From Marine group II euryarchaeote REDSEA-S11_B3N4 (lineage in GTDB: Archaea; Thermoplasmatota; Poseidoniia; Poseidoniales; Thalassarchaeaceae): a DNA stretch of 64,000 nucleotides. The notes below the pieces were generated by a model. That model searched no databases, had not been told where the DNA came from, and saw only the letters and a program-made list of their open reading frames with translations. Position numbers and translations under genes: made by a program. Of the stretch, positions 57,493 through 61,784 are shown piece by piece (within the stretch, counting starts at the first letter, position 1; every line of letters starts with the position of its first letter). Location: contig LURR01000012.1 of NCBI GenBank assembly GCA_001628485.1, positions 146,563 through 210,562 on the forward strand, read 5' to 3'.

Positions 57493-57572
57493 TTGCAATT
57501 GAAAGGACACCGTCTCTAATTGTTCATGTTATTTATATTATCATTTATAAGAGGGAAGTCGACCGTCAACCT

Positions 57573-58289
57573 ATGCTCAGCGATGAAGAAAGACTTACTG
57601 TAGTGAATGTGGTGGCATCTACCAGGGTAGCGGAGGAACTGGACCTCCCAGACATAGCAATCCAGTTGAACTGCGAATACGAGCCAGAGCAGTTCCCAGG
57701 GGTCGTTTACAGGGTAGTCGATCCAAAGTTAGCAATTCTGATGTTCAGATCCGGAAGGGCGGTTTGTACTGGTGGTAAGAACGAGGACAACATCCAGACG
57801 GGTATAGAGAGGATGATTGGCGATCTAAGAAATGCCGGAATAGAGACTTGGGAACTAAAGGATGTTGAAATCGAGGTCCAGAATATGGTAGCAACGTACT
57901 CACTATTCTATCCCGAGGACTACGGAGAAGTCGCAAAGATGGACGACATCAACACGAAGGTTATCGATGAAGATGGCGGTGGAATCAGAGCAGCAACCGA
58001 CGAGGAAGTTGAAAACGAGGACCCCAGGATTAGGGGAATACTAGAGGGAGAGCCTTTGGCAGCCCTCCCAAGGAAACTCAATCTAAACAACCTGACCTTC
58101 CACCTTCCATTCGACAAGGTGGAATACGAGCCCGAGCAGTTCCCAGGCTTGATTTACAGGCTAGACTACCCTCGCGTGGTGTGTCTTATTTTCGGTAGTG
58201 GGAAGATGGTGATTACTGGAGCCAGACACAAGGATGAGATTCTTGAGGCAGTAGAGCAGATAAAAGACGAGCTAGCGGACCTCCTGTAG
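57573..58289 (+). CDS. tbp: TATA-box-binding protein with an atypical ~40-aa acidic insertion in the second repeat
   Basis: Both repeats present (NVVAST...YEPEQFPGVVYRV...SGRAVCTGGK and QNMVATYSL...YEPEQFPGLIYRL...SGKMVITGAR). 238 aa versus ~180-185 for typical archaeal TBP. The extra DDINTKVIDEDGGGIRAATDEEVENEDPRIRGILEGEPLAAL lies between S1' and the YEPEQFPG strand. Confidence 0.9.
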   Translation: MLSDEERLTVVNVVASTRVAEELDLPDIAIQLNCEYEPEQFPGVVYRVVDPKLAILMFRSGRAVCTGGKNEDNIQTGIERMIGDLRNAGIETWELKDVEIEVQNMVATYSLFYPEDYGEVAKMDDINTKVIDEDGGGIRAATDEEVENEDPRIRGILEGEPLAALPRKLNLNNLTFHLPFDKVEYEPEQFPGLIYRLDYPRVVCLIFGSGKMVITGARHKDEILEAVEQIKDELADLL

Positions 58290-58319: not shown

Positions 58320-61300
58320 TTGCGTGATGCCATGCGCGCCGCATGCTTATCGGCAATGGCTGTAGCCATTCTTGCCTTCGCACAGTTTTCCTATTCGTTT
58401 TCACCCGATGATTTTCACATCAGAGACTCCAGTTCCCATGAGTCACATGTGCAGGCAATGACGACTACCGGGACTGCAGATGTTCCTATCTGGAGAGTGA
58501 ATGACAACTGGATGTACGATGGTTTCCTAGATGTGGGGGATTTCGTTGCAGACTCAGGGGTGTCCACAAATGTCGAGACCCTAGATGGGTCACTAGATCG
58601 AACGGTCGAAGACATCTACCTAATGGAAATAGACGGCAAGGAAACTCTGGTTTACAAGGTGGAATCGGTCGGAGAATACGAGTCGGACGGGGTAATACAA
58701 ATCGATGGGACAAGCGGCTGCCTCTATGTGGATATGCAGACAATAGAGATCATCAGAGTCTCTGATCTAGCAACCTATTCCCAGGAAGTAACAATTGACG
58801 TGTACTTCGATCCGCTATTCTTCGGATGCGCCGCTTGGCTGAGGCAGGATATCGGTGAGCTCGTCGTCGAGAACACATATGAGCCCCCATTGGAGAACTA
58901 TGACTTCCCGATCTCAGTAGGGGAGTCTTGGGGGATGGATTACGAACAAGCCACTAATTACAGCGGTTCTAGCAATTACGTCGACATACCGGAAGATTCG
59001 AGCGACTCGAACTCCACGAGTTGGTCTGTAGTCAGCCAGGGCAACTCCGGTGTTGCTTACCCCGGATGCTACCAGTCGTTCAACGTGACAGCATACGACT
59101 CAGACGGCGAGGAGACCGGATACAACTGGTTCTGTCCAGCCGTAAGAGGAGAGGTGAAGAGCACAATGGAACAGGCTTTCGGGTTCCTAGCAGTACACGA
59201 GCTAGTGAGCTATCAACCAGTCCAGAGGGGCAAGTTGGTTTCTATCGATGTCCAGTACCCCCTCTCTCCCACTGATATCGAGATATCCGCTTGGATTAAC
59301 GTAACTAATCAGGGACAGGGTGTATCTGGTCAAGAGATACAATTCAGGTATGAATCAGATGAACAGTTTCGGAATGTGACAACCGACGAAAACGGAACCT
59401 GCCACATAGTGTTCAATTCGGGGGATAATCCTGATGATACCGATGGACTCGGGGAGTTAGGAAGTCATGGACTAATCGCTTGGATTGGCGATGAGAGCAT
59501 TATCGGAGGCAGGACTCTTTCGATAGACTCCGAGATTCACGAGATTGACTTGGTTACTAGGTCATCGGCGGTTACCGTCCAGAGGTTCCGACCATCCACT
59601 GGGAACCAGTTGACTCTCGACTCATCTATCGGTTTCGCGGCAATCTCAGGAGATGTCCTGACCTTCTCCGTACCCGTATTAAATCGTGGACTAATTCAGT
59701 CCCCATACTCTACGATAGTGGTGAGCGCTCCTGATGGTACGGGAGTATCTGGAACAGTTCCTCCATTGGGGAGCCTGGAGGAATCTAGGGTTTTTGTGAA
59801 CTGGACAGTCCCCGAGTCCCAATCATTCGGAAACGTTTACCTTTACTTCGAGGTTGACCCTCAGGAGGAGATACCCGAGGATGGGAACAGGACCAACAAC
59901 CAAGGCTCCTTCGTATTGTATATCGGAGGGCTGCCTCTTGCCTTCCTCTCTCACCCCAACGAAATCCTAACCTATGAGGGGGCGACACTCGACGCCACCT
60001 CCTCATACGATTCCGATGGCGGAGAAATAGAATGCGAGTTCAATATCCAGAAAGTCGACGGCTCAACGTTCCAGACCATAGATGACGACTGTATCTTGGA
60101 ATGGTCTTGGCCAGACGACGGCTCATTCTCGGTTGAGGTATTAATTACCGATGGTGAGAGCGACAAGACCACTGCCCAGTCCACGATATCGATACTCAAT
60201 CGGCCTCCGGAGATTTCCATCGGAACCGACAACGATGACGTCGTTGTGACCAATCCGATCACCTTCTTCGTGACTAACAGCAGCGATATCGACACACTGA
60301 ACCCATCCGCACCAATAGAGATTCTTTGGGATGCAGGATGCTCGGAGGGCCAAGTAGGGCAATCGTGTACATTGACTCCGATAGTCGAGGGGAACCTGAC
60401 CGTTACAGTCATGGCGACCGATGATGACGGAGCCATCACGACGGCTCAGCACTCCGTTCATGTGACCAACATAGCCCCATCCAATCCGGTAGCTGAACTT
60501 TACATAGGTGAGACTAGGATTTTTCCCGATAGCAGAGGCGTGTTCATCGTACATGAGGGGGATGAAATCACGTTATGGGGCCAGGCCGACGACTCCTCAA
60601 ACGATCTCGAATCTCTAAATCACATCTGGAAGCCAGATGCAGAGGACCTCCCTGAACTGATTTTCTCTAGCTTCGGTGAGAGGAGTACTATTTCCGGGGT
60701 TTCCTACAATACCTCTGGGATGCACCTTGCAACCCTTCAGGTATTCGACGATGATGGCGAGTCAACTGAAGTCCTGATAGTGCCGATCCAAGTAGAAAAC
60801 GTAGCTCCTGTAATTTCCCCAATCACTACGACCTTGGGCCAGCTCGACGAGGATGAGGAATTCACCATTTCCCCCCAGGTAATCGAAACGGGAACCGACT
60901 CAGAGCGGCTGGTTCACTGCTTTGACCTGAACCCTGTCGACGACTCGGACTCCGATGGGCAGTCTGGAAACGATTGCGACGTCGAATCGCCTTCTCTTGT
61001 CCACTCATGGCCGGACTCAACTACTGCCCCAGAATCCCTCATCTTCCACGTTACGGATGATGATGGCGAATCGGCATCAATCGAGTTCTCGTTCTCCGTT
61101 GTGAACGCCCCTCCGGCTGCCTTCGCCTCTGCAAGTGTCTCAAATCCCACTGAGGGCGATTCAATCGTGCTTTCAGCCAATGGGACCGTGGACTCTCAAG
61201 CAGATATGGACTCGTTGCAGTTCCACTGGGACATCGACATCACCTCAGACTCGGACGGTGACGGAGATCCGGCTAACGATGTCGACTATACCGGCAGGTG

Positions 61301-61784
61301 GATCGAGTTCTCCTATGACTCGGGAGGTTCCAAGAAAGCGAAATTAACTGTCCTCGATGACAGTTCTAGCCATTCCGTGACTATGGATCTAGAAGTGGCA
61401 GATGCGCCCGTATCGTTCTCAGAAGAACTAACTTCCAACATCGTCCCGATAATCTTCACCTTGATCGTAGTCTCCGCAGGTGCTTGGGCATTATTTAGGA
61501 ACCCAAGTAAGAGTCGCTCGGAAGAGGAAAAGAAAGCATCAGATATCGATTTTGACGCAGCATTCGATGAACCAGAGACTCCTGTCATAGACCCCAATGA
61601 GATGTTCGCACCACCAGGGGAATCGCCACGGGAAGATGCGGCAATCCTGGATGGCTTGGACGAAGTTCTGGACGAGTTAGGATTGGGCAAGGAAGATTCT
61701 CCAGTAATCCCATCGGCACCTAGAATCGACGACGCAAACAGCAATCTTGACCCTGAGGATATCGAAGCCCTCTTTGAGGAGTAG
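58320..61784 (+). CDS. Large cell-surface protein with repeated PKD/Ig-like domains, C-terminal TM anchor and acidic cytoplasmic tail
   Basis: Signal peptide (AACLSAMAVAILAFAQFSYS). Recurring DDDG...V.V.N(A/R)(A/P)P repeat endings (VLITDGESDK...ILNRPP; VMATDDDGA...VTNIAPS; LQVFDDDGES...VENVAPV; VTDDDGESA...VVNAPPA). TM IVPIIFTLIVVSAGAWALF, followed by a D/E-rich tail. Confidence 0.6.
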   Translation: MRDAMRAACLSAMAVAILAFAQFSYSFSPDDFHIRDSSSHESHVQAMTTTGTADVPIWRVNDNWMYDGFLDVGDFVADSGVSTNVETLDGSLDRTVEDIYLMEIDGKETLVYKVESVGEYESDGVIQIDGTSGCLYVDMQTIEIIRVSDLATYSQEVTIDVYFDPLFFGCAAWLRQDIGELVVENTYEPPLENYDFPISVGESWGMDYEQATNYSGSSNYVDIPEDSSDSNSTSWSVVSQGNSGVAYPGCYQSFNVTAYDSDGEETGYNWFCPAVRGEVKSTMEQAFGFLAVHELVSYQPVQRGKLVSIDVQYPLSPTDIEISAWINVTNQGQGVSGQEIQFRYESDEQFRNVTTDENGTCHIVFNSGDNPDDTDGLGELGSHGLIAWIGDESIIGGRTLSIDSEIHEIDLVTRSSAVTVQRFRPSTGNQLTLDSSIGFAAISGDVLTFSVPVLNRGLIQSPYSTIVVSAPDGTGVSGTVPPLGSLEESRVFVNWTVPESQSFGNVYLYFEVDPQEEIPEDGNRTNNQGSFVLYIGGLPLAFLSHPNEILTYEGATLDATSSYDSDGGEIECEFNIQKVDGSTFQTIDDDCILEWSWPDDGSFSVEVLITDGESDKTTAQSTISILNRPPEISIGTDNDDVVVTNPITFFVTNSSDIDTLNPSAPIEILWDAGCSEGQVGQSCTLTPIVEGNLTVTVMATDDDGAITTAQHSVHVTNIAPSNPVAELYIGETRIFPDSRGVFIVHEGDEITLWGQADDSSNDLESLNHIWKPDAEDLPELIFSSFGERSTISGVSYNTSGMHLATLQVFDDDGESTEVLIVPIQVENVAPVISPITTTLGQLDEDEEFTISPQVIETGTDSERLVHCFDLNPVDDSDSDGQSGNDCDVESPSLVHSWPDSTTAPESLIFHVTDDDGESASIEFSFSVVNAPPAAFASASVSNPTEGDSIVLSANGTVDSQADMDSLQFHWDIDITSDSDGDGDPANDVDYTGRWIEFSYDSGGSKKAKLTVLDDSSSHSVTMDLEVADAPVSFSEELTSNIVPIIFTLIVVSAGAWALFRNPSKSRSEEEKKASDIDFDAAFDEPETPVIDPNEMFAPPGESPREDAAILDGLDEVLDELGLGKEDSPVIPSAPRIDDANSNLDPEDIEALFEE

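Follow-up and report, generated by a model that had tools for sequence, protein, structure and literature searches.

Few proteins of archaea and eukaryotes are as conserved as TATA-binding protein (TBP). The architecture of its core of ~180 residues is, to our knowledge, considered almost invariant, and the additions known so far are confined to terminal tails. How, then, should a TBP gene be read that carries a long stretch of extra sequence inside the C-terminal repeat of its product? The gene in question lies in a window of 64,000 nucleotides (nt) of contig LURR01000012.1 (positions 146,563 to 210,562, forward strand; assembly GCA_001628485.1), from the Marine group II euryarchaeote REDSEA-S11_B3N4, a member of Candidatus Poseidoniales, family Thalassarchaeaceae (Marine Group IIb, MGIIb). 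Poseidoniales are among the most abundant archaeal groups of the surface ocean, and we know of no cultured member. Our analysis indicates that the entire order carries an internal, apparently folded TBP module, whose length shifts between families while the core barely does.

That the protein is a TBP with both repeats, as a first-pass annotation made from the DNA letters had recognised, is evident from the Pfam family PF00352, which matches the 238-amino-acid (aa) protein in two stretches (E 7.6e-52, 173.5 bits against a cut-off of 22.9). A phmmer search against PDB sequences matched 35 TBP chains, the best being Methanocaldococcus jannaschii TBP 2z8u (E 3.7e-44). This chain aligns in two pieces, query residues 5-123 and 178-235, and leaves the middle without a counterpart, so both repeats are present and extra sequence stands inside the second one. 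The strand S1' (EIEVQNMVATYSL) aligns with IQNMVATADL of 2z8u, and the helix H1' region with NLDDIALM of 2z8u and with LNLIQLTMAL of the insert-free protein P0131.

The functional residues of the core are likewise retained. A residue check found N12, F41, F58, T66, N104, F190, F207 and T215 all present; these are the established DNA-contact positions (two Phe pairs, and a central Asn and Thr per repeat), with N104 as the central DNA-contact residue and F190 as the DNA-kinking residue. Across an alignment of 116 sequences, N12 and F41 are invariant, and T66, N104, F58, F190 and F207 are conserved at 90% or more. The stirrup glutamates E186 and E188 are intact in EYEPEQFPG; they occupy C.L3.2 and C.L3.4, the positions at which a conserved Arg and Thr of TFB/TFIIB are bound (PMC7221094). 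The AlphaFold2 model has the saddle fold, and its core superposes on 2z8u. Every sequence and fold feature of the TBP family that we tested was thus found, and the protein departs from the family in its compact-loop habit alone: an S1'-H1' loop of 3-5 residues is typical of TBPs, though not defining, and is absent here. With repeats, saddle fold, DNA-contact residues and stirrup glutamates intact, this TBP should bind TATA boxes and recruit TFB in the ordinary way.

Each TBP repeat follows the topology S1-H1-S2-S3-S4-S5-H2 with an antiparallel sheet, the two repeats forming one ten-stranded sheet, and the stirrup, which is the S2'-S3' loop, is clamped by TFB. The insertion occupies the S1'-H1' loop of the C-terminal repeat, and H1', a short S2' and the stirrup motif follow unchanged. 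The first-pass annotation had considered a position at the stirrup, which has to be corrected, since H1' (LNLNNLTFHL) and the short S2' stand between the insertion and the intact stirrup motif. Its estimate of ~40 extra residues was also too low; because FYPEDYGEVAKM and PRK are extra as well, alignment gives ~54-56 (F112-R167). Canonical TBPs have 3-5 residues in this loop, so the insertion is not a variable loop of normal length. In the 116-sequence alignment, the corresponding interval holds 5-7 residues in 72 canonical TBPs against 56 in the window protein, and YEPEQFPG follows the S1' motif after 20-26 residues in the sampled canonical TBPs but after 75-76 in the window class. The closest insert-free relative found, P0131 (183 aa, 58% identical), reads ATYNL-GVP-LNLIQLTMALSFEKVEYEPEQFPG where the window protein reads ATYSL, then 56 residues, then KLNLNNLTFHLPFDKVEYEPEQFPG. 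The acidic character ascribed to the extra sequence is borne out by 16 D/E versus 6 K/R in 56 residues, a net charge of about -10; the TBP core is acidic too (32 D/E versus 18 K/R in 182 residues). Pfam searches with the 57-aa and 73-aa inserts matched no family.

The insertion is shared far beyond this contig. A search of metagenome and genome proteins gave 7,840 significant hits, of which the best 120 were compared; these are 87-100% identical to the window protein, and all measurable ones show the 75-76-residue spacing from S1' to the stirrup. A scan of GTDB species genomes located 468 stretches with a relative, the best 80 of which align with the query over its full or almost full length, including the insert. 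TBP could be extracted from 79 of these 80 loci, and in all 79 the insert measures 56 or 57 aa, so that orthologues do share it, as had been proposed for checking. Its sequence follows a near-invariant pattern in these loci, xYPEDY..A(K/R)MDD.NT(K/R)VID..GGIRAATDEEVE.ED.RIRGI..GEPLAALPRK, in which YPEDY, MDD.NT, RAATDEE, RIRG and GEPLA stand out as near-invariant segments across the 79 species. According to their source names the carriers belong to Candidatus Poseidoniales, mostly Thalassarchaeaceae; Poseidoniaceae are named among carriers as well, and the suggestion of a lineage-specific trait is thereby upheld. The ratio of nonsynonymous to synonymous substitution rates (dN/dS; Nei-Gojobori, 79 species) is 0.058 for the insert versus 0.021 and 0.015 for the two repeat cores, rough figures given that dS is saturated at ~1.6, and clear purifying selection on the insert is what they indicate.

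These observations also dispose of the idea that the insertion is an artefact or a mobile element, be it through misassembly, a wrong frame, an intein or an intron. The gene reads through without a break in frame, third-position GC content is 0.571 in the insert and 0.568 in the rest of the gene, no flanking repeats were found around the insertion, and the insert occurs in thousands of independent assemblies, where it evolves as protein under purifying selection. An intein was considered and rejected: the segment starts at F112 and ends at R167, followed by K168-L169, and so lacks the junction residues of an intein, which would be Cys, Ser or Ala in first place and a closing His-Asn ahead of Cys, Ser or Thr; it contains no Pfam domain, is far too short at 56 aa, and forms part of the mature fold in the model. 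The artefact explanation, which no observation favours and to which we give practically no chance, is already refuted.

The insert appears to have a structure of its own. AlphaFold2, run with the 116-sequence alignment, returned a model with a mean predicted local distance difference test score (pLDDT) of 92.6 and a predicted template modelling score of 0.82. Within residues 111-170, successive blocks of ten residues have pLDDT values of 88, 83, 89, 89, 92 and 89. The model places strands at residues 129-132 and 138-140, forming a hairpin around a GGG turn, then a helix at 143-147 (TDEEV) and short bridges at 154-155, 161 and 166. A Foldseek search against the PDB returned TBPs only, with 2z8u as best match (E 7.4e-19, root-mean-square deviation 1.7 Å). 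The template modelling (TM) score of this match is 0.92 when normalised to the target and 0.68 when normalised to the query, the latter indicating that no solved TBP contains the insert region. The insert is thus apparently a small folded unit and not a disordered acidic linker.

A wider comparison of 201 distinct Poseidoniales-type TBPs suggests how this unit is built. Their S1'-H1' segments measure 23, 24, 29, 31, 32, 56, 57, 58, 59, 62, 65, 66, 69 or 73 aa, that is, at least 14 length classes between 23 and 73 aa, on cores with pairwise identities of at least 85%. All length classes share the flanks xYPEDYxG and (E/D)PLAxxPRK, and the 23-aa class consists essentially of these flanks alone (e.g. 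HYPEDYDGKDKFTGEPLAGEPRK), with one such gene standing in syntenic position on a 3.0-Mb contig. Most of the long inserts have a hairpin followed by the motif R-x-(A/P)-T-(D/E)-(D/E)-E, with examples such as IRAATDEE, IRVPTEEE, LRQATDDE, LRIPTEEE and WRAPTEEE and variants such as PADDEE and LILATDEQ; the 23-32-aa classes lack the motif. Hairpin and acidic-helix motif occur in forms from both Marine Group IIa (MGIIa) and MGIIb. Among the named forms, that of 255 aa is assigned to Candidatus Poseidoniaceae (MGIIa), as is one of 211 aa, while those of 237 and 238 aa belong to Thalassarchaeaceae.

Judged from these alignments, the loop is made of two layers, an order-wide base insertion of ~20 residues and a lineage-variable module nested at its tip. 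A version of the base insertion with 21-23 aa is found in P0130 and P0158, two divergent proteins (47-52% identical) whose lineage is not named, and the base layer is accordingly older than the nested module. The resulting picture is that of an old base insertion with a tip that gained and lost sequence time and again; clustering of the cores, which are too similar for this purpose, did not resolve the order in which the length classes emerged. Two proteins, each from a single lineage, exemplify continuing insertion and deletion at the loop tip. P0364 (213 aa) lacks exactly the nested module, reading ..NTRVI and then KQGEPLATMPRK, an apparent clean loss between RVI and (RG)IK that is consistent with an in-frame deletion. 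P0377 (250 aa) has ~12 additional residues in the acidic helix region, within VWNAMTKEEQEKFGKFQ.

What might the module do? We give somewhat better than even chances to the view that it is an accessory contact surface, which tunes assembly with TFB or another factor; for any specific partner our confidence is lower. In this proposal the module would lie along the lateral or top edge of the C-terminal lobe, sharing its sheet edge with the stirrup that binds TFB. There it would supply or adjust a contact, be it with TFB, with another factor or with flanking DNA, and leave the basic mechanism unchanged. The argument is one of topology: with an antiparallel sheet order of 2-3-4-5-1, as reasoned from known DNA contacts, S1' and S2' would run in the same direction, and the C-terminal end of S1' would therefore lie on the same lateral edge as the C-terminal stirrup. 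The insert would leave the fold ~four strands, roughly 19 Å, nearer to the saddle centre than the stirrup, and a module of 56 residues could from there extend as far as the TFB core domain, the DNA beside the TATA box or the upper side of the C-terminal lobe. TBP topology thus makes it plausible that the module touches TFB or flanking DNA.

Several points weigh against this proposal. The placement of the module relative to TFB and DNA comes from topology and not from a computed complex, and the fold of the insert from AlphaFold confidence and not from an experimental structure. A search for core positions co-varying with the length of the insert did not reveal a docking site; positions differing between long- and short-insert forms are the usual variable helices and the linker alone, in a test confounded by phylogeny. 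The dN/dS values are rough for the reason given above, although purifying selection on the insert is still clear. Since acidity pervades the whole protein, that of the insert may reflect no more than proteome composition. Some Poseidoniales lineages have the 23-32-residue base loop alone; core TBP function accordingly does not need the nested module, which may lack a specific partner. Moreover, a second TBP-like gene is annotated in one MGIIb genome, and the window-type TBP may thus not be the only TBP of these cells.

Some of these points would also be expected if the S1'-H1' loop were a permissive site that collects in-frame insertions and deletions, the module having no specific partner or regulatory role and being kept since it is folded and harmless, or merely as an acidic, solubilising surface. 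The many length classes on nearly identical cores, the lineages with a base loop alone, the apparent module deletion in P0364, the acidity of the core itself and a TBP of the same type from another lineage, which tolerates a 215-aa insertion in its inter-repeat linker, all fit such a tolerated expansion. It accounts less well for a length fixed at 56 or 57 aa in Thalassarchaeaceae with many positions invariant over 79 species, for a dN/dS of 0.058 despite saturated synonymous change, for the hairpin and acidic-helix motif kept between MGIIa and MGIIb forms, and for the confident fold prediction. We consider this explanation improbable on balance, yet of real weight. The charge of the insert could also point to a built-in acidic regulator, in which helix and hairpin fold onto the DNA-binding underside or shield DNA phosphates. 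This intramolecular DNA mimic would reduce binding to non-specific DNA or make TFB a requirement for binding to TATA boxes. The net charge of about -10 and the acidic run T-(D/E)-(D/E)-E, which is the best conserved feature across the long-insert classes, speak for it, as do the short C-terminal tail of the window TBP (DELADLL) and the anchoring of the loop, by general topology, at the centre of the saddle edge. The module is, however, compact and confidently predicted instead of being a flexible tether, and short-insert lineages without the acidic run keep equally acidic cores; we hold such a regulator to be quite unlikely.

A division of labour between two TBPs has to be weighed as well, with the insert-bearing form serving a subset of promoters or TFBs and a short TBP doing the general job. 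A second paralogue elsewhere in the genome had been suggested as a check, and the result is mixed: tblastn and a TBP profile search found no second TBP-like open reading frame (ORF) in the window or in loci L001-L083, while a candidate exists in one annotation. In the Prokka table of the Thalassarchaeaceae metagenome-assembled genome (MAG) SIMO Bin 19-2 (GenBank VMDE00000000; PMC9723583, supplementary file 4), tbp_1 (531 nt; contig 29, 20959-21490) stands between TatD-like and thioesterase genes, without eggNOG or KEGG assignment and with transcript coverage below that of tbp_2, whereas tbp_2 (714 nt) has the genes of mevalonate kinase and a PKD protein as neighbours; the label tfb_2 on another gene of this MAG suggests that its TFBs number more than one. 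By its context, tbp_2 is the orthologue of the window TBP gene, and tbp_1 is a candidate second TBP taken from a published annotation. Among canonical-length TBPs, none of 20 representatives judged by cluster names and none of 2 judged by genomic context was identifiable as a Poseidoniales paralogue, a check in which small clusters at 90% identity could still contain one. The tbp_1 and tfb_2 labels thus lend some support to a specialised insert-bearing paralogue; against it stand the missing assignment and lower transcript coverage of tbp_1, the profile searches, and the order-wide occurrence of the insert-bearing gene with conserved synteny and promoter. We regard this division of labour as very unlikely.

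A bolder reading, which we hold to be unlikely, would see in the hypervariable module a functional interface under lineage-specific pressure, either as a built-in cofactor or regulator of TBP-DNA-TFB assembly or as a surface in conflict with viruses. If the latter were true, the fast changes in loop length, set against a core that hardly changes, would be a sign that host and viral transcription machineries are being told apart. Marine archaeal virus-like contigs do encode TBPs of their own, without the insert. The closest canonical-length relatives of the window TBP, P0143 and P0407, are ~50% identical to it and lack the insert, and TBPs of this type lie on a virus-like 170-kb contig (L084, 8001-8573) and on L085. 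Besides many small ORFs without annotation, the virus-like contig encodes an HTH_17 protein, methyltransferases and a protein similar to the PolD small subunit. Insert-free TBPs are also present in two IMG/VR viral genomes (L088, 3001-3534; L089, 3001-3537), and the Poseidoniales-like motif LPFDK(T/V)EYEPEQFPG is common to the viral forms. In IMG/VR, no match to the insert-bearing host form was obtained.

Compared with canonical archaeal TBPs (M. jannaschii 2Z8U, Sulfolobus acidocaldarius 1MP9, Pyrococcus woesei 1PCZ/1AIS/1D3U), the window TBP shares the two PF00352 repeats and the saddle fold, the Asn, Phe and Thr residues that contact DNA, the EPEQ stirrup glutamates and an archaeal TATA promoter upstream. 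It differs in its length of 238 aa versus 181-198 aa, and in an S1'-H1' loop of 56 residues, predicted to form its own small folded unit, versus 3-5. Acidic modules that act on TBP are known in TAF1 (TAND1) and in the Mot1 latch, and some archaeal TBPs have acidic C-terminal tails. By analogy, the window insert likewise brings an acidic segment near TBP that could compete with DNA or modulate the binding of factors; those modules, however, are separate proteins or terminal tails, whereas the acidic helix described here lies inside the fold.

The N-terminal extensions of eukaryotic TBPs and the TBP paralogues are likewise lineage-specific additions to an extremely conserved core, and such additions are thought to add interaction capacity (PMC7221094, PMC3597702). 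The eukaryotic additions are terminal and mostly disordered or of low complexity, whereas the archaeal insert is internal to the C-terminal repeat, short and predicted to be folded. Neither of these two papers on TBP evolution (PMC7221094, PMC3597702) mentions an internal insertion at the S1'-H1' site, and we found no description of the insertion in full-text literature on TBP, on Poseidoniales or Marine Group II, and on insertions. The insert-bearing sequences themselves are public and annotated simply as TBP. Should the module indeed contact TFB, DNA or another factor, it would give an archaeal general transcription factor a built-in accessory surface of the kind that eukaryotes obtain through separate proteins. 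The natural series of loop lengths, 3, ~23, ~31, ~56 and ~73 residues, offers ready-made deletion variants for biochemical work.

Large in-frame insertions that leave both repeats in place are seen in other TBPs too, at a different site. A Thalassarchaeaceae TBP of 452 aa (P0121, P0271, P0272; partial P0431; loci L082 and L083, 5001-6359 in each) has a 56-aa S1'-H1' insert and, replacing ELKD, an in-frame insertion of ~215 aa in the inter-repeat linker, so that P0121 carries both kinds. Its locus is syntenic (mevalonate kinase, TBP, PKD/CARDB protein), and independent samples yielded it on at least 24 contigs, which reach lengths of up to 127 kb. The ~215-aa insertion has no Pfam match and is not intein-like; its residues ~79-134 match PHROG families of virion structural, head decoration and tail fibre proteins (best E 2.7e-10), and the sole other homologue found is another Thalassarchaeaceae TBP. 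In P0217, an unrelated archaeal TBP of 257 aa from NCBI that shares 35% identity with the window TBP, an acidic insertion of ~70 aa interrupts the inter-repeat linker. Internal TBP insertions are therefore not unique to Poseidoniales, although the site in P0217 is different from the S1'-H1' loop of the window TBP.

The window gene is a conserved, syntenic and promoter-bearing TBP gene of the order; its features are collected in Table 1.

Table 1. Features of the TBP gene and its immediate surroundings (positions within the window).
Feature	Position	Strand	Basis and remarks
TATA box TTTATAAG of TBP gene	57544..57551	+	21 nt upstream of ATG, -29..-22
TBP coding sequence, 238 aa and stop codon	57573..58289	+	ORF list, Pfam, PDB matches, AlphaFold2
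N-terminal TBP repeat, ~residues 8-95	57594..57857	+	Pfam best stretch 8-87; canonical short S1-H1 loop; N12, F41, F58, T66
Strand S1' of C-terminal repeat, EIEVQNMVATYSL, residues 99-111	57867..57905	+	predicted strand E100-110; includes N104
Whole insertion, residues 112-167 (F112-R167), FYPEDYGEVAKMDDINTKVIDEDGGGIRAATDEEVENEDPRIRGILEGEPLAALPR	57906..58073	+	alignment intervals; 56 residues
N-side flank of insertion, FYPEDYGEVAKMD	57906..57944	+	part of base insertion (xYPEDYxG..); in every length class, 23-73 aa
Nested variable module, residues 125-157	57945..58043	+	predicted hairpin TKVI / GGG turn / IRA, acidic helix TDEEV, RIRGI segment
C-side flank EGEPLAALPR	58044..58073	+	second half of base insertion (..EPLAxxPRK); in all length classes; near-invariant in 79 loci
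Helix H1' region KLNLNNLTFH	58074..58103	+	predicted helix H171-177; canonical fold resumes
S2'/stirrup motif EYEPEQFPG	58122..58148	+	holds E186, E188, F190
Very acidic 1,154-aa protein	58320-61784	+	directly downstream of TBP

The coding sequence is the frame from the first ATG to the stop and reads exactly as the 238-aa protein that the first-pass annotation had quoted; the misassembly or wrong frame that it had named as a possible flaw is contradicted by the independent assemblies mentioned above. The TATA octamer stands at -29..-22 of the TBP ATG in 76 of 76 loci compared. Its spacing from the ATG fixes the start codon and implies that a strong consensus TATA promoter drives the gene and that the transcript is probably leaderless or nearly so. 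Database versions of this TBP with 252-283 aa are over-long start calls, in which the TATA box is translated as ..ILYK.. The gene order of ferredoxin/CCG protein, mevalonate kinase, TBP and a giant PKD/CARDB surface protein is kept in distant relatives. The TBP gene found in this context in SIMO Bin 19-2 carries the assignment K03120, and coastal metatranscriptomes contain transcripts of it (PMC9723583, supplementary file 4). A motif scan of the window found no TFB gene.

The adjacency of the downstream 1,154-aa protein to TBP is kept across Poseidoniales. Its orthologues (L081, 7837-11616; L082, 6402-9869) have weak or faint matches to PKD/CARDB-type repeats, and in the window protein itself a hydrophobic stretch close to the C-terminus precedes an acidic tail. 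Within the TBP gene, the stretches coding for EYEPEQFPG in the two repeats (57675-57724 and 58122-58171) are 82% identical in DNA over 50 nt, an unusually high similarity between the two halves of one TBP gene.

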